64,000 nt of DNA, taken from the NCBI GenBank assembly GCA_035632695.1, contig DASQGG010000019.1, forward strand, positions 3,701 to 67,700, given 5' to 3'. Source of the DNA: Thermoplasmata archaeon (lineage in GTDB: Archaea > Thermoplasmatota > Thermoplasmata > RBG-16-68-12). Made by a program: the position numbers and the translations under genes. Positions 3,251 to 10,398 of the stretch are shown piece after piece. The number at the start of each line of letters is the position of its first letter. Within the stretch, counting starts at the first letter, position 1. Under the pieces are notes generated by a model. That model ran no database searches and had not been told where the DNA came from. It was given only the letters and a program-made list of their open reading frames with translations.

Positions 3251-3976
3251 CTAGGCGGCGGCCGGCAACTTGGCGAGGTACGCGGCGACTTCCTGCTCAC
3301 TCAGCCGGCGGAACTTCTGGCCCTCGGCGACTAGCCCGACCTCGATCGTCTTACCGTCGAGCTTTTCCCCCTCGGACGCCTTCTGAAGGGCCTCGAGGCC
3401 CAAGAGGATCGCCTCGTCCTGCGCCATGCCTTCCTTGTACTTCTCCTCGAAGAGCTCCATGACGGCGTTGCGGCCCGCACCGATGGACCCCGCCTTGTAG
3501 GACACGAGCGCCCCGCTGGGGTCCGTCTCGAACAGGTGCGTTCCCATGTCATCCACCCCGGCCACCAGGAGCGCGGTCCCGAAGGGCCGGACACCGCCGT
3601 ACTGCGTGTAGTTCTGCTTGTAGTCGCAGATCTTCTTGACGAGGAGGTCCACGCCGATCTTCTCGCTGTAGGTGACCTTGTTGATCTGGGCTGCCAGCCG
3701 GGCGTAGTCGATCAAGACGCGGGCGTCGGCCACGAGCCCCGAGGTCGCCGCACCGATGTGCTCGTCGATCTGGAAGATCTTCTCGATGGACGAGGTCTCG
3801 ACCAACCGGGAGCCGATCTTCTTGTCGGCCATGAGGACGATCCCGTTCTTGAACTTCAGTCCCGCCGTCGTGTTGCCTCGCGTGACCGCCACGCGGGCGT
3901 ACTCGACCTGGAAGAGCCGCCCGTCGGGGCTGAAGACCGTAATCGCCCTGTCGTATGCCATCTGGCCCGGTTGCAT
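3251..3976 (-). CDS. psmA: Proteasome subunit alpha.
   Basis: The 241 aa product carries the proteasome alpha N-terminal signature [20 protein letters not shown] and a GxxxxG core. A TATA-like GCTTATAAGTG lies on the minus strand about 35 bp upstream. Confidence 0.92.
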
Positions 3977-4053
3977 AACGTCCCTCTTGCGGGGCCGACT
4001 ATGGTCCCGTCACTTATAAGCCTTCTTTCGAACGGCCCGGAGGCACGAGATCC

Positions 4054-4338
4054 TCAGGAGAGATACTTCTCCGTCGCACGCCGAATGGTCCCCGAGGTGC
4101 CCAGCGTGGTGACCCGCACGGGAATGCCCGCGATGGTGGCCATCGTCTTGAGCGCCTCGATCGTGGCGTCCTTCCGCAGGTGGGTGCACCGCACGAGGCC
4201 CTTCGGGTCCTGGAACCCCACGAGCCACAAGGGATCCCTCAGCGCGTGCAAGGCGTCGAGCACCTCGTCGCGGCGGAAGGGGCGATCCCCTTCGACCCGG
4301 AACGCGATGTATCGGTACCTCGGGCGATGGGTGCTCAC
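4054..4338 (-). CDS. RNase P protein component 2 (Pop5/Rpp14-like), GTG start.
   Basis: The 94 aa product carries RYRYIAFRVEG, typical of Pop5. It lies in the conserved position upstream of psmA in archaea. Confidence 0.6.
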   Translation of the reverse strand: MSTHRPRYRYIAFRVEGDRPFRRDEVLDALHALRDPLWLVGFQDPKGLVRCTHLRKDATIEALKTMATIAGIPVRVTTLGTSGTIRRATEKYLS

Positions 4339-4345
4339 GCTGACC

Positions 4346-4395
4346 CGAGAGGAAAGGGAGAAGGAAAAAGGTTGGGGAGAAAAAAGTGGAGGAGG
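4346..4395 (-). terminator. Pyrimidine-rich tract with T6 and T5 runs (minus-strand sense) immediately after the ftsZ stop. It is a likely oligo-T terminator and also carries the pop5 promoter.
   Basis: The plus strand is almost pure purine (gagaggaaagggagaaggaaaaaggttggggagaaaaaagtggaggagg). On the coding strand that gives CCTCCTCCACTTTTTTCTCCCCAACCTTTTTCC. Oligo-T tracts are archaeal termination signals. Confidence 0.4.
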
Positions 4396-5541
4396 TCAGC
4401 GTACCTCATCGACGTCGGAAGAGGTGCCGAGGCGGACGGCCCCGGTGTTCACTTCCTTGCCGAGCAGAGACTTGGACTTGACTCCCGTGATCACGAGGAG
4501 CACCTGGACCGTATTCGCCAGATCGGGCTCCACGGAGCAGCCCCAGATGATCCGGGCCTGCGGGTTCACCTTCTGCCCGACGATCTCCGCGGCCTTCTCC
4601 GCTTCGGAGACGGTCAGGTCCGGGCCACCCACCACGCGGACGAGCACGCCGCGAGCGTGCGTCAGGTCCACCTCGCCGAGCAGCGGGGACTCGAGGGCCT
4701 CGTTGATCGCGTACTCCACGCGGTCCCGCTCCTCGTCGCTCTCGCCGATGCCGATCATCGCGACGCCGCCGCCCTTCATGATCGTCATGAGGTCGGCGTA
4801 GTCCAGGTTCACGAGCCCGGGCTTCGTGATGATCTCCGTCATGCCCTTGATGGACTGCATGAGAATCTCGTCGGCCACCTTGAACGCGGCGTTGATTGGG
4901 AGCCGCGGGACGAGTTCCAGGAGCTTGTCGTTGTAGATCACGATCGTCGTGTCGCAGAACTTGCGGAGCTTGTCCAGGCCCGCCTCCGCGTTCTCCATGC
5001 GGATTCGGCCCTCGGACTTGAAGGGCATCGTGACGACGCCCATGGTGAGCGAACCCTCTTCCTTGGCGACATGGGCCACGTACTGCGCCGCGCCGGTCCC
5101 GGTTCCGCCGCCCATGCCTGCGGTGATGAACACGACGTGCGCGCCGCGGATGAAGGTCCGGATCTCCTCCTCGTTCTCGTGGGCGGCCTGCTCGCCGACC
5201 TCGGGTAGGGCACCGGCACCGAGGCCCTTCGTGAGGCGCTTCCCGATGAGAATCTTCTTCGGCGCATGGACGGAGAGGAGGTGCTTCGCGTCCGTGTTGA
5301 TCGCGCAGAGCTGCGCACCGGTGATCCCGGCCTCGCTGCAGCGGTCGATCGTGTTCGAGCCGCCACCGCCGCAGCCCACGATCTTGATCGAGACGTTGAT
5401 CGACTCCACGATCTTCTCGATATCCGCGTCGTCCGCGGTCTTCGCGGCCTCCGGCTTCGCGGCGGCCGCGGCCTTCTCCTTCTCTTCCTGTTCCTGTGCC
5501 TCTTGGTGCCGAGCGAGGGCTTCGTTCAGAAGCGACTTCAT
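4396..5541 (-). CDS. ftsZ: Cell division GTPase FtsZ. The start is trimmed to [12 protein letters not shown]; the six-frame ORF runs on to 5718.
   Basis: The product has the tubulin/FtsZ signature GGGTGTG ([15 protein letters not shown]) and the nucleotide-binding loop GCGGGGSN. The longer ORF start would place the TATA box (TTTAAATA at 5595-5604) inside the gene. Confidence 0.92.
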
Positions 5542-5594
5542 TGAACCATCCCATCCCGATGGATTCTGACTTTGTGGCGCATCGGGGTGAGGGT

Positions 5595-5604
5595 ATTTAA
5601 AAGT
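5595..5604 (-). promoter_or_regulatory. TATA box (TTTTAAATACC on the minus strand) for ftsZ, about 55 bp upstream of ATG 5541.
   Basis: An AT-rich TTTAAATA sits in a GC-rich intergenic region. A GGATGGGATGG SD-like element precedes the ATG. Confidence 0.45.
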
Positions 5605-5669
5605 AGTCATACATTTGTCGGACGCGGCCCGTTGACAAAGGAGGATGGCATCCGCGGGAGGGAGCGCAC

Positions 5670-6458
5670 TCAGAGGCTCGCGGCGACGCCCTTCGACGCC
5701 CCGCTCTGGATCACGCAACCCGTGTTCGTGATATCGAACGGGTACACGACGTCATCGTGGCTGGAGCCCTTGTACTTCTCGATCGAGATGAACCGCTTGA
5801 TCCCCGTGTCGTCGCGGAACTTGTGCAGCCGGATCTCGCCGCGCGCCAGGAAGGCCTCCGGAGGAACCTCGCCCTCCTCGGGGAGCTCGAGGGTCAAGAG
5901 CGACGTGACCTTGGACTCCGCCAGGAAGCGCATGAACGATTGCGTCGTGAGCGTCTCCTCGAACTCGCGCATGCAGAAGTACTTCAGCGCGGTGATCGAA
6001 TCGATCACGACGCGCTGGTATTGCCGCTTCAGGAAGAGGTTCTTGAGGAGCTGCTGCAGGGAGTGGACGGTGACCTCGCGGCTCTCGAAGTCGGGGGTCT
6101 TCCGGATGCGGTCGTCCAGGTCGCGCAGGCGGATGGGCTCCTCCTCCGTGGAGATCTCGAGGATGGGGGTGGGCTCGAACCTTCGGATGTCCGAGTTCGC
6201 ATCCAGGACCTCGAGGTCGTCCAGGTTCCAGCGGAACGGCCGCATGTTGAGCTTGAGCTCGTTCGGCGGCTCCTCGAGGGCCACGAAGAGGCAGCGTTCC
6301 CCGCCCTCGAGCCCTTCCCGGAGGAACTGCACGCTCATGATCGTCTTGCCCGCGCCGGGCGGACCCGAGAGGATGTAGGGACGTCCCGGGACGAGGCCGC
6401 CATGGAGCATCTTGTCCATGCCCGGCACCCCGGTACGGATCTTGGGCACGGCGCTCAT
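5670..6458 (-). CDS. KaiC-like / RecA-superfamily ATPase, single domain (COG0467-type).
   Basis: The 262 aa product has Walker A GPPGAGKT and Walker B RVVIDSITAL, with a KaiC/RadA-like layout. The start overlaps the stop of the upstream paralogue by 4 nt. Confidence 0.75.
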   Translation of the reverse strand: MSAVPKIRTGVPGMDKMLHGGLVPGRPYILSGPPGAGKTIMSVQFLREGLEGGERCLFVALEEPPNELKLNMRPFRWNLDDLEVLDANSDIRRFEPTPILEISTEEEPIRLRDLDDRIRKTPDFESREVTVHSLQQLLKNLFLKRQYQRVVIDSITALKYFCMREFEETLTTQSFMRFLAESKVTSLLTLELPEEGEVPPEAFLARGEIRLHKFRDDTGIKRFISIEKYKGSSHDDVVYPFDITNTGCVIQSGASKGVAASL

Positions 6459-7537
6459 GGGGTCACCCGCTTCGGCGGCGGAGGCACCGGCGTCGCGGGC
6501 GGCGGCGGGACGATGCCCAGGCGCTGCTCGAGCTCCGAGTTGCAGGCCAACGCCTGCTTCATCGCCTTCTGGTAGTTCTTGCGCTGGAAGTGGAGCATGG
6601 CGCGGGAGAGGGACACCTCAACGTCCCGCACGGGGATCTGCCGGCGCTGGGCCTCCTCGACCTTGCGGAGCGCGGCCTCGAAGACGTTCGAGATGTCGTC
6701 GATGATCCGCATCTCCAGGAGGGTTTCGCTGCCGTGGGTGCCCACGCCGTTTGTCATCGCGACCTGCTGGTCCGCATAGACCACAAGCCCGTCGCCCGTG
6801 ATGGCGAGGGGTCGGACGTGGTCATCGAAGCGGCTGCCGCGGAACTTCTCGATGGAGATGGCGCGCCGCACGGTCGTGCTGTCCACCCACTTGTGGAGAC
6901 GGATCTCGCCGCGCCCGAGGAAGAACTCCGTCTCGATGGCCTTTCGGTCGAGGTGCTCGGACACGATGAGCGTGGTCGCCTCGAGCTCGGAGAGAAACCG
7001 CATGAAGGATTGGATGAGGATGCGGCTGTCTTCGCCCTCCATGGAGAACATCTTGAGCGCGGTCATGGAGTCGACGACGATCCGCTTGTACCGCTCCTTG
7101 GTTCTCTCCAAGCGTCCGAAGAACTCCTGCTTGATCATCTTCTGGACACTGTGGACCGTGACCTCGAGCGCACGGATCTGGGACGATTGACGGATGTCTT
7201 GGACGTCCTCCATGTCCCGCACATCGAGCGCCGTGCCCACGTCGATCACGGACCGCTGGCGCTTGTGCGCGCGCACGTCCGGCGTGGCGTCCAAGATCTT
7301 GAGCCGATCGAGGTTCCAGCCGAACATGGTCATGTTGGACTTGACCTCGATGGGCGGTTCGTCCAGGGTGACGAGGAGGCAGGGCTCGTTGCGCTTGAGA
7401 CCGTCGAGGAGGAACTCGGTGGCCAGGATCGTCTTGCCGCTGCCCGTGGGTCCGGAGATGATGTACGGACGGGTCGGCAGCAAGCCGCCGGTCAGCATCG
7501 CGTCGAGGCCTTCGACGCCCGTCTTGACACGTTCCAT
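6455..7537 (-). CDS. KaiC-like / RecA-superfamily ATPase paralogue with an approximately 110 aa helical C-terminal extension. The start is set at MERVKTGVEGLD; an alternative ATG lies at 7582.
   Basis: The product has Walker A GPTGSGKT and Walker B RIVVDSMTAL. The N-terminus aligns with the downstream paralogue (MERVKTGVEGLDAML versus KIRTGVPGMDKML). The ATG at 7582 sits inside a TATA-like AACGTTTATGG. Confidence 0.75.
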   Translation of the reverse strand: MERVKTGVEGLDAMLTGGLLPTRPYIISGPTGSGKTILATEFLLDGLKRNEPCLLVTLDEPPIEVKSNMTMFGWNLDRLKILDATPDVRAHKRQRSVIDVGTALDVRDMEDVQDIRQSSQIRALEVTVHSVQKMIKQEFFGRLERTKERYKRIVVDSMTALKMFSMEGEDSRILIQSFMRFLSELEATTLIVSEHLDRKAIETEFFLGRGEIRLHKWVDSTTVRRAISIEKFRGSRFDDHVRPLAITGDGLVVYADQQVAMTNGVGTHGSETLLEMRIIDDISNVFEAALRKVEEAQRRQIPVRDVEVSLSRAMLHFQRKNYQKAMKQALACNSELEQRLGIVPPPPATPVPPPPKRVTP

Positions 7538-7850
7538 GGACTTCGGCCTGGAGACATTTCGCCCGACGAGGGGTGCTCCCATAAACGTTCCGATGTGAGA
7601 ATCAAGGATAGCGATGGTGGGCGAGGCCCACGGAGACCGGCTCGGGCTCCGAAAGGGGGCATAGCGGGGGATGGAATCTCAGGGACCGAGGCGGGTCCTC
7701 GGTGCCGTTTGAACCATCGATCTCCGGGTGTCTCACCGGGGACCCGGGAGTCCCGGGGTATGAGCCCGACGGGATATCCTGGCTACCCCACCCCGCTATC
7801 GCGGCTCGAGAGGATTGGCCCCTCGCGCTTAAACCTTACGCGGGCGGCCG

Positions 7851-8180
7851 TCAGAAGAACTTGCGGAATCGGAGGAGGTCATCGAGGCTGCCCTTGAACT
7901 TCAGCTTCCCCGTCGCGTAGGCCTTGAAGGGGCCGATTTCGCGGAGCAGGAGACCGCGGAGCGTTTCCTCGTCCGTCAGCAGGGCGATGTCCGCGCGGTC
8001 GACGCCTCCGTCCAGGATGCCCGCCACATGCCGGTCCTTCAGGGTGAAGTGCCACTTCGCCCCGTTGGACAGCTCGATGAGCACGGTCTTCTGGAGGTCC
8101 CCGACCTCCGCGCTCAACGCGGGGTCCGCGTCCACCTTCGCGTTGAACTTCGCGACCAGGTTCTCGAGCAGCTCCTTCAT
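7851..8180 (-). CDS. SCP2 (sterol carrier protein-2) domain protein. The start is trimmed to MKELLENLV and overlaps the rnhB stop by 4 nt.
   Basis: The product has an SCP2-like pattern (LSAEVGDLQKTVLIELSNGAKWHFTLKD...KAYATGKLKFKGSLDDL). Confidence 0.6.
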   Translation of the reverse strand: MKELLENLVAKFNAKVDADPALSAEVGDLQKTVLIELSNGAKWHFTLKDRHVAGILDGGVDRADIALLTDEETLRGLLLREIGPFKAYATGKLKFKGSLDDLLRFRKFF

Positions 8181-8833
8181 GCCTTGCCCCGCCCAAATTC
8201 CTCCAGCTTCCGGTTCTTCGCCTCCGCGAGGAGGCGGCGCGTGGTGTCCCACGTCAACCGAGTGTAGGGCGGCGGAGACCCCTTCGCCCTAATCCACCTT
8301 TCCAGGAATGCGATCGTCAGAGGGTCCGACGGGTAGCCGGAACCCACGGGCTCCCCGATCTCCGCCTCGATCTTGCGCATCTCCGCGTCCCTGCGGACCT
8401 TGGCAACGATGGAGGCCGCGCTCACGACGGGGAAGAGATCGTCCGCCTCGTGCTGGGAGACAACTTCGACCTCGAAAGGGAGCTGCTTCAGGATGGACCG
8501 CTTGAACTCGATCTCGTCCACGTCGACCGCGTCGACGTAGGCGGTCTCCGGGTGGAGTTTCTCGATCACCGAGGCGAAGAGATGGGCCTCGAAATCGTTG
8601 AGGGACATCTGCGCGCGCATCACGTCGATGTCCGAGGCAGGCACCACGACGACCTCGGACTTCGCGACCTTCTCGATCTCCGGCGCGAGGAGCTCGCGCC
8701 GTTCCGGGGAGAGCTTCTTCGAATCCCGCACGTTCAGATGACGGAGGGGTACGTCCGATTCGACCAGCACGCCGGCCACGACCAAGGGACCCAGCACGGG
8801 GCCTCGGCCTGCCTCATCCACCCCGCAGATCAC
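8177..8833 (-). CDS. rnhB: Ribonuclease HII.
   Basis: The 218 aa product has the N-terminal MICGVDEAGRGPVLGPLVVAGV motif (DEAGRG catalytic) and an RNase HII fold. Confidence 0.88.
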   Translation of the reverse strand: MICGVDEAGRGPVLGPLVVAGVLVESDVPLRHLNVRDSKKLSPERRELLAPEIEKVAKSEVVVVPASDIDVMRAQMSLNDFEAHLFASVIEKLHPETAYVDAVDVDEIEFKRSILKQLPFEVEVVSQHEADDLFPVVSAASIVAKVRRDAEMRKIEAEIGEPVGSGYPSDPLTIAFLERWIRAKGSPPPYTRLTWDTTRRLLAEAKNRKLEEFGRGKA

Positions 8834-8836
8834 GGA

Positions 8837-10123
8837 TCACGCCTCGAAAAGCTCCCGCGCGGTCTCCTGGGCGCGTTCGAGGACCGCATCTTCGTCGACG
8901 GTCCGCACAACTCCCCCGGCCATGAGAACTTGGCCGTCGACGATCGTCGTCTGGACATCGCTGCCTCGGCTCGAGTAGACGAGATGGCTGATGACGTTTG
9001 CCGGATAAAAAGGCGTGGTGTGGGGACGCCGCAGATTCACCACGGCGAGGTCGGCGCGCTTCCCCACCTCGATCGAGCCGAGACGCTCGCTGACGTGGAG
9101 GGCCTCCGCGGCGTCGATGGTGACCATGTCGAGCGCGGTCTGAGCAGGGAGAACGCGCGCGTCCCAGCGCGTCGCCTTGTGGAGCAGGGAGGCCGTCTTC
9201 ATCTCGGCGAAGAGGTCCGCGGAGTTGTTGGACAGGGGCGAGTCGGTCCCGAGGCCCACGCTCACGCCCTGGGCGAACATCTCGGGAACGGGCGCCACGC
9301 CGCCCGAGGCGAGCTTCATGTTCGAGACGGGGCAGTGGGCGACGCTCACGCCGTGGCGAGCGAGGATGCGCACCTCGTTGAGGGTGAGCCACACGGCGTG
9401 CGCGACGTTCAGCCGCGGATCGAGAAGGCCGATCCTCTCGAGCCACTCCGCGGGACGCATCCCGGTCTTCGCGACGTGGTCGTAGACCTCCTTCCGAGTT
9501 TCGGAGAGATGCGCGTGGAGGCGCACGTCGCGGTGGGTGGCGACCTCGCGGGCGCGGAGAAACGTTTCCTCGGACGCGACGTAGACGCCTTGGACGCCTA
9601 CGGAGGGCGTGACGAGCGGGTCGCCGAGGTGCTTCGCGACGAACGCGTCCGCGTTCTTCACCGGGTCGCCGTGCTGGGTCGTGTACGCCGAGTCGAGCGT
9701 CACCCACGACAGGAAACCGCGCATCCCGGACTCCCGCACGGCCCGGGCGACCTCGTCCTCCCAGTAGAAGAGGTCCTGGAAGCTCGTGGTCCCCGACCGG
9801 ATCATCTCGAGGCAGGCGAGGAGGGCGCCAATCTGCACGTCCCGCCGGGTGAGCTTCGCGTCGATTGCGAAAGATTTCGTCAGCAACTCCTCGAGCGGCA
9901 TGTCGTCCGCGATGCCTCGGAGGAGCGTGTTGGCCGCGTGCTGGTGGAGGTTGATGAGGCCGGGGAGGACAGCGCAGCCCGAGCAGTCCAGGACTTCGTC
10001 CGCGCGGTCCTGCGTCTCGCCGATCGCCGCAATCCGACCTCCGTCCACGAAGACGTTTCCGCGCACGATGCGGCGTCCGGAATCCTGCGTGACGACGAGG
10101 CCGTTCTTCAGGAGGAGGGACAT
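8837..10123 (-). CDS. Amidohydrolase of the MtaD/SAH-deaminase/chlorohydrolase family. The start is trimmed to MSLLLKNGLVV.
   Basis: The product has a metal-dependent hydrolase HxH motif (LPGLINLHQHAANT) and DSPLSNN/HCP motifs typical of 5-methylthioadenosine/S-adenosylhomocysteine deaminases. Confidence 0.65.
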   Translation of the reverse strand: MSLLLKNGLVVTQDSGRRIVRGNVFVDGGRIAAIGETQDRADEVLDCSGCAVLPGLINLHQHAANTLLRGIADDMPLEELLTKSFAIDAKLTRRDVQIGALLACLEMIRSGTTSFQDLFYWEDEVARAVRESGMRGFLSWVTLDSAYTTQHGDPVKNADAFVAKHLGDPLVTPSVGVQGVYVASEETFLRAREVATHRDVRLHAHLSETRKEVYDHVAKTGMRPAEWLERIGLLDPRLNVAHAVWLTLNEVRILARHGVSVAHCPVSNMKLASGGVAPVPEMFAQGVSVGLGTDSPLSNNSADLFAEMKTASLLHKATRWDARVLPAQTALDMVTIDAAEALHVSERLGSIEVGKRADLAVVNLRRPHTTPFYPANVISHLVYSSRGSDVQTTIVDGQVLMAGGVVRTVDEDAVLERAQETARELFEA

Positions 10124-10398
10124 CGGTCCGCGGCCGATGGGGGGAAGGCTAGAAAGGTTTTGTGGGGCGCCCACCACACTCTACGGTCTAGTGGTGAAGG
10201 TGGTATGCTGGCGCTGTCGCGTCCGGGCTTCGAGTTGCGTCGCGAACCCCCCTCGTACCGAGCTCCCCCGCCGGACACGCCTTCACGGAATCCACGAGCT
10301 CGCTCGGTAGCTCCGTTTGGATGTAGTGACAGGCCGCCACAACACGAGGGGGACGAATGACCGCCTATCCGCCCGATCGTTCCTGGGTCGCGTGCGGC

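Follow-up and report, generated by a model that had tools for sequence, protein, structure and literature searches.

Two overlapping KaiC-like ATPase genes upstream of ftsZ in a Thermoplasmata archaeon

Genes and predicted transcription signals of the locus

The 64-kb stretch of DNA that was analysed (the window) contains two KaiC-like ATPase genes, referred to here as A and B, which follow one another head to tail on its minus strand and precede ftsZ. The group of organisms that carries such a pair consists of uncultured soil Thermoplasmata archaea. The open reading frames extend over 6455..7582 and 5670..6458, both on the minus strand, and overlap by 4 nt at the sequence ATGA. Their products are paralogues, with 44% identity over about 269 aligned positions (E 2e-76). 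In these respects the preliminary description of this DNA was correct, and also in placing the pair upstream of ftsZ on the same strand, the ftsZ start at 5541 being 128 nt past the stop of gene B. The other side of the pair is occupied by a tRNA-Met gene and the genes for SCP2 and RNase HII (Table 1), and psmA is three genes downstream. The pair had been described as lying inside the pop5-psmA-SBDS-rrp4-rrp41 block; it is located at the edge of that block, upstream of ftsZ.

Table 1. Positions of genes, protein-coding segments and predicted signals in the window
Feature	Position	Strand	Remarks
KaiC-like gene A ("KaiC1")	6455..7537	(-)	360 aa; ATPase domain, three-helix extension and Pro-rich tail; stop codon 6455-6457
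KaiC-like gene B ("KaiC2")	5670..6458	(-)	262 aa; ATPase domain alone
ATGA stop/start overlap of A and B	6455..6458	(-)	putative coupling element; read from the sequence
Walker A GPTGSGKT, protein A residues 29-36	7430..7453	(-)	read from the sequence; G29, G34 and K35 invariant in 57 orthologues
Walker A GPPGAGKT, protein B residues 32-39	6342..6365	(-)	read from the sequence; G32, G37 and K38 invariant in 49 orthologues
Family-specific expansion, protein A residues 90-146	7100..7270	(-)	about 35 residues; flanked by the LDATPD strand and Walker B
C-terminal three-helix extension of protein A	6518..6739	(-)	helices 267-298, 304-318 and 322-340; AlphaFold2
Pro-rich tail of protein A	6458..6517	(-)	20 residues (GIVPPPPATPVPPPPKRVTP); read from the sequence
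Predicted promoter of the A-B operon	7580..7604	(-)	TGATTCTCAcatCGgAAC then TATA-like GTTTAT; about 45 nt before ATG 7537
Predicted ftsZ promoter and leader	5542..5623	(-)	BRE/TATA-type; GTCCGACAAATGTATGACTA, TTTTAAATA (5594-5602), conserved GTCAGAATCCATCGGGATGGGATGG leader
tRNA-Met(CAU)	7662..7797	(-)	initiator-like, two non-canonical insertions; upstream boundary of the A-B transcription unit
ftsZ	4396..5541	(-)	381 aa; TIGR00065, 398 bits; Tubulin and FtsZ_C Pfam domains

The start of gene A was initially placed at 7582. That ATG falls within a conserved TATA-like promoter element, and the start is assigned to 7537, a position that is conserved in related loci when the upstream regions are aligned. 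The protein that begins there is 100% identical to an NCBI protein (P0001) of a Thermoplasmata archaeon MAG. Among about 55 related loci with a split pair, 34 share the 4-nt overlap with gene B, in most cases with a purine-rich, Shine-Dalgarno-like stretch preceding it, and an insertion between A and B was found in none of 56 loci. This arrangement indicates that the two genes are translationally coupled, as had been proposed. Protein B is better conserved than protein A across the related loci.

The promoter assigned to the pair is conserved in the aligned upstream regions of related loci, and its motif occurs once in the window. That of ftsZ is nearly invariant across 37 aligned spacers (the window and 36 related loci), its motif also occurs once, and it stays directly upstream of ftsZ in those loci where genes have been inserted after B. 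A and B are thus predicted to form an autonomous two-gene operon with its own promoter, and ftsZ is a neighbour of the pair, outside that operon. No clear terminator was seen after gene B in the window sequence, so that transcripts of B may run on into ftsZ. An operator common to the two promoters was considered and rejected, as the motifs differ and each is found only once in the window.

ARAGORN and Rfam searches of the 5-kb stretch 3900-9000 returned no tRNA or RNA family. The tRNA gene upstream of A was spotted by eye, and ARAGORN calls it as tRNA-Met after in-silico removal of both insertions. It is conserved upstream of A in related loci.

Family membership and distinctive parts of the two proteins

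A Pfam search of both proteins agreed with the first assignment of the two reading frames as KaiC/RecA-like ATPases carrying Walker A and Walker B motifs. Each matches PF06745 (KaiC) end to end, with E values around 1e-40 (8e-40 for A, 3e-42 for B) and scores of 137 and 145 bits against a gathering cut-off of 26.6, covering positions 1-230 of the 231 in the profile. The motifs are intact. Walker B reads RIVVDS and RVVIDS in the two ATPases, and strand 3 is followed by a catalytic acidic pair, D-E in one protein and E-E in the other. Across 57 A orthologues and 49 B orthologues, Walker A, the acidic pair and Walker B show little or no variation, and in those of A the same is true of the Lys/Arg finger positions K231 and R233. 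Both proteins keep all of the catalytic motifs and are hence predicted to be catalytically competent.

The best relatives among solved structures are KaiC (E 2e-32 and 1e-36) and the archaeal hexameric KaiC-like proteins PH0284 and PH0186. Both A and B are closer to the CI half of KaiC than to the CII half, so that the A/B duplication was independent of the one in KaiC. Membership of the RecA superfamily could also be read to mean that the pair are RadA paralogues, RadB or aRadC-like, with a part in DNA repair or recombination, and weak matches exist to RecA and RadA (Sms) models as well as to SSO2452 (2w0m; E 8e-11 and 3e-16). The KaiC matches are far stronger, however, and the RadB equivalog reaches 19 bits against a cut-off of 278 and the RadA models 16-30 bits against 259-403 (a range that holds across NF006861 (RadB), NF003301 and TIGR00416). 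Nor are any DNA-repair genes coupled to the pair, and a role of this kind is very improbable.

The named archaeal subfamilies of KaiC-like ATPases are also distant. Against TIGR03877 (thermo_KaiC_1) the two proteins score 96-102 bits (cut-off 307), against TIGR03880 (KaiC_arch_3) 72-81 bits (cut-off 249) and against TIGR03881 (KaiC_arch_4) 69-75 bits (cut-off 248). Judged by these profile scores, the pair constitutes a new subfamily of archaeal KaiC-like ATPases, set apart from those already named. A connection with anti-phage defence was rejected, PADLOC having given only a P-loop-level match to mad8 (E 1e-4, about 20 bits).

Both proteins carry the same conserved expansion. It is nearly invariant, with invariant columns that include R95-T102 and V106-D108 of protein A. 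In a phmmer alignment to KaiC, residues 90-146 of protein A face chain residues 108-129, and by way of the published KaiC numbering the expansion appears to occupy the position of the B-loop of CI.

The helical C-terminal extension and poly-Pro tail of the upstream protein, also noted in the preliminary description, were confirmed. AlphaFold2 predicts three helices between residues 267 and 340 with pLDDT values above 90 (91-95 over this stretch in one model, 82-91 in the full-length model). Pfam gave nothing above threshold for the extension, only a sub-threshold similarity to TPR_16, and a comparison of the three helices with PDB folds gave no significant match, none being better than E = 3. 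An MIT- or TPR-like arm, which would bind Pro-rich motifs of the ESCRT-III type, was rejected as unsupported; the 50 best PDB matches included no MIT domain. The tail contains a PPPP run in most close orthologues of A, and in more distant subclades basic tails are found instead. The full-length model of protein A, built from 16 sequences, has a poor ATPase domain (mean pLDDT 49). Foldseek with this model found KaiC and PH0284 at TM-scores near 0.2, and because of the poor ATPase domain no structural statement on interfaces is drawn from it.

Gene order around the pair in related genomes

The preliminary description linked the pair to the division GTPase as a regulatory module for cell division, and suggested that the gene neighbourhood be compared in relatives. 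The linkage is conserved: ftsZ comes within 2.3 kb after the pair in all 51 split-pair loci whose length allows this to be seen. This holds down to 50% identity for protein A and 62% for FtsZ. In one locus (L063), psmA has been lost downstream of pop5, yet the order pair-ftsZ-pop5 is kept. The functionally unrelated genes for an amidohydrolase, RNase HII and SCP2 are kept just as faithfully in the same block, and the whole block of about 15 kb is conserved along with the pair and ftsZ. As the rest of the block is equally conserved, the adjacency of the pair to ftsZ says little.

The junctions within the block differ in how often they are broken. Insertions longer than 450 bp separate B from ftsZ in 13 of 51 loci and SCP2 from A in 11 of 45, and no other junction of the block is broken as often as these two. 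None were found at A|B, ftsZ|pop5, pop5|psmA or psmA|SBDS in the 37-56 loci that could be scored for each, and ftsZ|pop5 is unbroken in 40/40. The insertions at B|ftsZ consist of 1.1-2.2 kb of unrelated genes, some of them on the opposite strand. The inserted genes are mutually unrelated as well: one lineage has an S8 protease, another a winged-helix regulator together with membrane or secreted proteins. With a separate promoter before ftsZ and this junction interrupted in a quarter of loci, the pair and ftsZ lack the sequence signs of one operon. In a further, low-GC locus (L146, GC 0.47) the two genes of a window-type pair overlap by the same 4 nt, but the upstream context is different; the contig ends inside B.

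These data bear directly on whether a complex of A and B acts as an ATP-dependent regulator of FtsZ or of the timing of division, for example through Z-ring assembly or ftsZ expression. The shared strand and the short spacing in the window, the proximity of ftsZ in all 51 loci and the persistence of the arrangement in L063 are what such a role would predict. Against it, the promoters of A-B and ftsZ are separate and dissimilar, the ftsZ promoter travels with ftsZ past insertions, including those with opposite-strand genes, and the junction itself is frequently broken, while genes with no functional relationship to division are retained equally well. The relatives of the pair described below are found away from ftsZ: none was seen within the available flanks of the fused orthologues, which occur in three contexts (L057/L059, L058 and L060), or in those of 80 loci with long-tailed pairs. 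The literature searched contained nothing tying KaiC-like proteins to FtsZ. A regulator of this type is unlikely, and the proposed division module finds no confirmation here. Nothing beyond adjacency ties the pair to division, and a role in division or its timing is unsupported speculation.

A narrower version, in which the fixed position reflects a partnership despite separate transcription, would make the complex a lineage-specific, ATP-driven regulator of division in these soil Thermoplasmata, acting post-translationally on FtsZ or on an anchor of the Z-ring through the arm and Pro-rich tail of protein A; this is quite unlikely. A genuine link to ftsZ would make the pair the first ATPase of this kind to regulate archaeal FtsZ division, a view that the present evidence does not support. 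On balance, the pair probably lies beside ftsZ as a matter of gene order inherited within a single Thermoplasmata lineage; the arrangement is not that of an operon, nor does it demonstrate a functional link. This judgement is made jointly with the overall explanation given in the next section.

Fused relatives, a possible complex of A and B, and comparison with known ATPases

The closest relatives outside the clade are single-chain A-B fusions and a large Thermoplasmata family of long-tailed pairs. In the fused proteins of 529-537 aa (P0084, P0085, P0086, P0091 and P0121-P0123), the N-half shares 56-59% identity with A and the C-half 51-56% with B, and a linker of about 28 residues stands in for the helical arm of A. 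In a neighbour-joining tree their N-halves group with A (bootstrap 71, or 99 with P0162 included) and their C-halves with B (bootstrap 74). A second, independent fusion of 620 aa (P0160/P0125) joins a long-tailed A to its partner B in the same order, with bootstrap values of 100 for both halves. Fused forms are rare among the relatives.

In L057 and L059 the fused gene lies 52-57 nt upstream of a gene for a PAC2-family proteasome assembly chaperone, on the same strand. Together with the presence of psmA downstream of the pair in the window, this would fit a function in proteasome assembly or gating in place of one with FtsZ. The two loci come from close relatives, however, and count as one observation, and the other fused contexts (L058 and L060) are without a proteasome gene. 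The exosome-proteasome gene block, of which psmA is a part, is widely conserved, and psmA is found in it with or without the pair. A partnership with the proteasome is therefore highly unlikely.

The two independent fusions, both in the order A to B, argue that A and B act in one complex, and from sequence they probably do so. Of the heteromeric pair functionally tied to the division GTPase that was first proposed, the heteromer is thus plausible, having fusions with an A-like N-half and a B-like C-half to speak for it, and the functional tie is not upheld.

The explanation favoured here, to which we give a probability of roughly 55%, is that the operon encodes two competent KaiC-family ATPases forming a split-KaiC hetero-oligomer with a signalling role, not a clock, and that its adjacency to ftsZ is inherited gene order. 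A and B would be made in step by way of the overlapping stop and start codons, and would in all likelihood come together as a single hetero-oligomer functioning as a split KaiC. A ring of A would be stacked on a ring of B, as CI is on CII in KaiC, with the C-terminal arm of A in the place of the CI-CII linker. By binding and hydrolysing ATP in its two tiers, the complex would change conformation, and this switch would control the binding of a putative partner. Contacts would probably be made by the nearly invariant 35-residue expansion at the predicted B-loop position, and by the helical arm with the Pro-rich tail. Such a complex would be a signalling or regulatory ATPase, as proposed for archaeal KaiC-like proteins, and not a phosphorylation clock.

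A and B could serve the same role by mixing within one ring, such as a hexamer of alternating subunits (A3B3). As close paralogues (44% identity) with the same expansion they could take equivalent positions in a ring, and as both resemble CI more than CII they are not differentiated in the manner of CI and CII. Both independent fusions, on the other hand, join A to B by a short linker, and the A-to-B order matches the CI-CII topology of KaiC; moreover, the known single-domain archaeal KaiC-like proteins crystallise as homohexamers (PH0284/2dr3, PH0186; PMC5520375). A mixed ring is thus doubtful, although the fusions as such bear on A and B being in one complex and not on stacked versus mixed rings.

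This obligate pair, fused at least twice into a KaiC-like two-domain chain, suggests how the two-tier rings of KaiC may arise from, or break into, single-domain genes. The locus is a clear and testable case among archaeal KaiC-like ATPases, with candidate partner-binding surfaces that can be named, and in practice it is chiefly useful in defining a subfamily for biochemical and structural studies.

Cyanobacterial KaiC, the CI-CII hexameric clock ATPase and kinase (PF06745, TIGR02655), belongs to the same ATPase fold family and is the best solved match. It shares Walker A, the acidic pair and Walker B with the pair; its Lys/Arg finger is kept in protein A, whereas protein B has Lys at the Arg position. 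The CI-CII order is mirrored by the gene order A then B and by the A-B fusions, but KaiC carries its two domains in one polypeptide and the window has two separate genes. The pair further differs in the expansion of about 35 residues at the predicted B-loop position and, when aligned to CII of a KaiC chain, in having, at the I-S-T positions, G-R (protein A) and A-R (protein B) in place of the phospho-acceptors S431/T432. Against the circadian KaiC equivalogs TIGR02655 and NF006799, A scores 70 and 104 bits and B 67 and 110, with cut-offs of 546 and 408. Without the acceptors, and with scores this far below the cut-offs, the circadian-style timing raised in the preliminary description is not supported. 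The identified neighbours of the pair (tRNA-Met, SCP2, RNase HII, FtsZ and Pop5) do not include kaiA or kaiB.

ArlH (FlaH) and GvpD, also single-domain ATPases of the KaiC family, each bind another machine and thereby regulate it. The ArlH/FlaH models score 16-27 bits against cut-offs of 194-215, and no archaellum (arl) or gas-vesicle genes are among the neighbours of the pair. Archaea carry many KaiC-like ATPases, almost all without a known partner. Makarova, Galperin and Koonin (mBio, 2017), as cited in two later papers (PMC5847659, PMC6393860), reportedly proposed that the single-domain archaeal members are signal-transduction hubs. The family offers a precedent for hexamer formation, and several paralogues per archaeal genome are typical (PMC5520375).

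The long-tailed KaiC-like pair found here in Thermoplasmata and Ca. Lutacidiplasmatales has the same design as the window pair: its protein A shares the expansion and has a helical region and a Pro-rich tail, and a bare B of about 258 aa comes directly after it. The ATPase domains of the two types are 40-47% identical, and each type also has a single-chain A-B fusion. The long-tailed pair differs in its tail of 300-1000 aa (20-28% proline), in a B partner that falls in a different, more divergent clade, and in its context, which is PGI, EVE, an HD-domain protein and a 1500-aa TPR protein, never ftsZ. NCBI assembly GCA_035272385.1, retrieved for the long-tailed pair, is not among the assemblies with a window-type pair. 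PH0284 (2dr3), PH0186 (2zts) and the KaiC_arch families have one RecA-like domain of about 250 aa, like A and B. The pair is distinguished from the named archaeal KaiC-like families by being an obligate tandem with a conserved expansion in both members, of which protein A also bears a helical arm and a Pro-rich tail.

The ATPase pair and its family

The two ATPase genes A (KaiC1) and B (KaiC2, 262 aa) overlap by the sequence ATGA. The preliminary description gave the right coordinates and motifs for the pair, the start of A apart: the ATG at 7582 falls within a promoter kept in related loci, in its TATA-like element. Conservation places the start at 7537 (ATG), for a protein of 360 aa that NCBI names 'ATPase domain-containing protein [Thermoplasmata archaeon]'. 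The assignment of both products to the KaiC family was borne out by a Pfam search, in which KaiC (PF06745) covers A and B over the whole profile (E 8e-40 and 3e-42), with the motifs present. The two proteins share 44% identity.

Location of the ATPase pair, neighbouring genes and features in the window and in related loci (L-numbers)
Feature	Position	Strand	Remark
Amidohydrolase	8837-10177	minus	
RNase HII	8177-8833	minus	
SCP2-like gene	7851-8180	minus	
tRNA-Met(CAU)	7662-7797	minus	136 nt
A	6455-7537	minus	
Expansion, RSVIDVGT..VRD....IRQSS in A	7100-7270, and equivalent part of B	minus	alignment to KaiC
B	5670-6458	minus	
ftsZ promoter/leader	5542-5623	minus	
ftsZ	4396-5541	minus	
pop5, psmA, SBDS, rrp4, rrp41	downstream of ftsZ	minus	
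Insertions between B and ftsZ	L043 11861-12919; L041 10136-12238; L002 7087-9183; L061 8834-10936		hot spot
Pair of a low-GC lineage	L146 4676-5916		
A-B fusion	L057 3074-5499; L059 3004-5343		
Long-tailed family	L064-L145, e.g. L144 8001-10892		

Among the orthologues compared (57 of A, 49 of B), Walker A, an acidic pair that is D-E in A and E-E in B, and the D-S of Walker B are invariant or nearly so. A also conserves the Lys/Arg finger positions (K231 and R233); in B the Arg is a Lys. Both proteins thus appear to be active ATPases. Among solved structures, the closest are KaiC (E 2e-32 for A, 1e-36 for B) and two single-domain hexamers from Pyrococcus, PH0284 and PH0186; matches to RecA and to SSO2452, a RadA paralogue, are much weaker. 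Single-domain archaeal homologues of KaiC have been described (PMC5520375). Both proteins score below the cut-offs of the curated NCBIfam subfamilies circadian KaiC, thermo_KaiC_1, KaiC_arch_3 and KaiC_arch_4, as well as those of the RadB, RadA and ArlH models. A and B most likely represent a new subfamily among the KaiC-like regulatory ATPases of archaea, in line with the proposal of such proteins as a 'signal-transduction hub' that is cited in PMC5847659.

Promoters and gene order around ftsZ

The 90 nt preceding the ftsZ start codon are near-invariant among 37 aligned spacers (the window and 36 related loci), and consist of GTCnGACa..GTATGACTAcTTTTAAATA, about 25 variable nt, and GTCAGAaTCCaTCGGGATGGGATGG before the ATG. 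This motif is still directly upstream of ftsZ where inserts follow B. GTCnGAC lies before the TATA box, GTCAGA after it, and a GGGATGGGATGG run precedes the ATG, an arrangement that resembles an operator or leader on which a dedicated regulator of ftsZ would act; the promoter/leader is near-invariant across species in which FtsZ identity is only about 80%. The pair has a conserved element of its own (TGATTCTCAcgtCGcAACGTTTAT, about 45 nt upstream of its ATG), which is unlike the ftsZ motif, and each of the two motifs occurs once in the window. The tRNA gene, which lies further upstream, has a TATA of its own. Sequence evidence points to three separate transcription units: one for the tRNA, one for A and B, and one starting with ftsZ that probably continues into pop5 and beyond; read-through between them may occur.

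The tRNA-Met gene, which related loci also have ahead of the pair, is initiator-like (A1:U72 pair, GGG/CCC in the anticodon stem) and is interrupted by insertions at two non-canonical positions: in the variable loop, after position 45, and in the T-loop. With these in place it is called by neither ARAGORN nor Rfam, and with both taken out ARAGORN calls tRNA-Met.

Related loci were collected from species-representative genomes (52) and from metagenome contigs. The 52 all come from uncultured Thermoplasmata-type MAGs, for the most part of soil and sediment origin, and their A proteins show 43-92% identity. The order RNase HII-SCP2-...-A-B-...-ftsZ-pop5-psmA-SBDS is found in every locus of enough length, so the pair is conserved near ftsZ. 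This conservation extends to the whole block, including genes without a conceivable tie to division. Junctions were compared by counting insertions of >450 bp, which tells tight links from loose. None was found between A and B (0/56 loci), ftsZ and pop5 (0/40), pop5 and psmA (0/37) or psmA and SBDS (0/40); the two loosest junctions are SCP2 to A (11/45) and B to ftsZ (13/51). Inserts at the latter vary by lineage: a membrane-anchored subtilisin-like S8 protease in one, and in another an opposite-strand HVO_0163-type double winged-helix regulator with a small membrane protein, plus a 387-aa secreted or anchored protein without a known domain. A low-GC lineage (0.47, L146) has a pair of the window type, likewise overlapping by 4 nt; its A is 263 aa and lacks the helical arm, the upstream surroundings differ (genes for a PIN/RHH toxin-antitoxin pair and for an isochorismatase), and the contig stops within B.

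The pair had been proposed as an ATP-dependent module for cell division or timing. Its constant presence near ftsZ (no more than 2.3 kb away in every checkable locus with separate A and B genes) agrees with this, but unrelated genes keep their neighbourhood equally well, the pair and ftsZ each have their own promoter, the junction between them is loose, and the closest relatives sit elsewhere in the genome. A functional tie to FtsZ or timing is therefore improbable.

Fusions and long-tailed relatives

The idea of a heteromeric pair gains real support from single-chain A-B proteins (seven clusters, 529-537 aa), with N-halves 56-59% identical to A, C-halves 51-56% identical to B, and a linker of about 28 residues in place of the helical arm. 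A neighbour-joining tree of ATPase domains places the N-halves with A (bootstrap 71; 99 when P0162 is included) and the C-halves with B (74). Where the genes are separate, 34 related loci show a [ATG]TGA overlap, usually with a GGAGG-like stretch in front, and the gap is 0-14 nt in most of the remainder. The fused genes occur in three contexts, none with ftsZ within the flanks examined: upstream of the fusion RibD_C and Mut7-C, and downstream of it a PAC2 chaperone and iron-uptake genes; methyltransferase neighbours; and adjoining a GvpD-like gene and PolD. In L057 and L059 the fusion lies 52-57 nt upstream of a same-strand gene of the PAC2 family (proteasome assembly chaperone). In the window, psmA is three genes downstream of the pair. 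A proteasome link, from one lineage only, is possible.

An exhaustive profile-free search returned 6479 representative proteins at E <1e-3, of which 132 fall below 1e-30. The nearest group outside the window clade and the fusions comprises at least 70 clusters of proteins of 500-1300 aa, labelled Thermoplasmata and Ca. Lutacidiplasmatales by NCBI. Their N-terminal ATPase domain (40-47% identity to A and B) is followed by a helical region and a proline-rich (20-28%) tail of 300-1000 aa, in which Pfam finds no domain. Of 31 loci with a gene for a bare 258-aa KaiC-like partner, 30 have it directly after the long-tailed gene on the same strand, and a 620-aa single-chain fusion has halves that group with the A and B of this family (bootstrap 100). 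This family repeats the layout of an A bearing arm and Pro-rich tail ahead of a bare B, which is therefore a recurring Thermoplasmata module. Neither ftsZ nor any other window gene lies within 10 kb in 80 metagenome loci of the family, and only the window's version adjoins ftsZ. The long-tailed genes usually neighbour PGI-like, EVE-domain and HD-domain genes as well as one for a TPR protein about 1500 aa long.

Comparison with KaiC

The arm of A consists of three helices (residues 267-298, 304-318 and 322-340; AlphaFold2 pLDDT above 90) followed by a PPPP-rich tail; a PDB fold search gave no significant match to the helices, and similarity to TPR is sub-threshold only. Residues 90-146 of A align to just 22 residues of KaiC. 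This leaves an almost invariant expansion of about 35 residues, which A and B share with the fusions and with the long-tailed relatives. By published KaiC numbering, it presumably corresponds in position to the B-loop with which CI binds KaiB, and it is a candidate partner-binding surface. At the clock phospho-acceptors S431/T432 of KaiC, A has G-R and B has A-R. Both proteins align better to the CI half than to CII. Since the fusions run A then B, the arrangement of CI and CII in KaiC, the pair may be a split KaiC in which A and B would form stacked rings.
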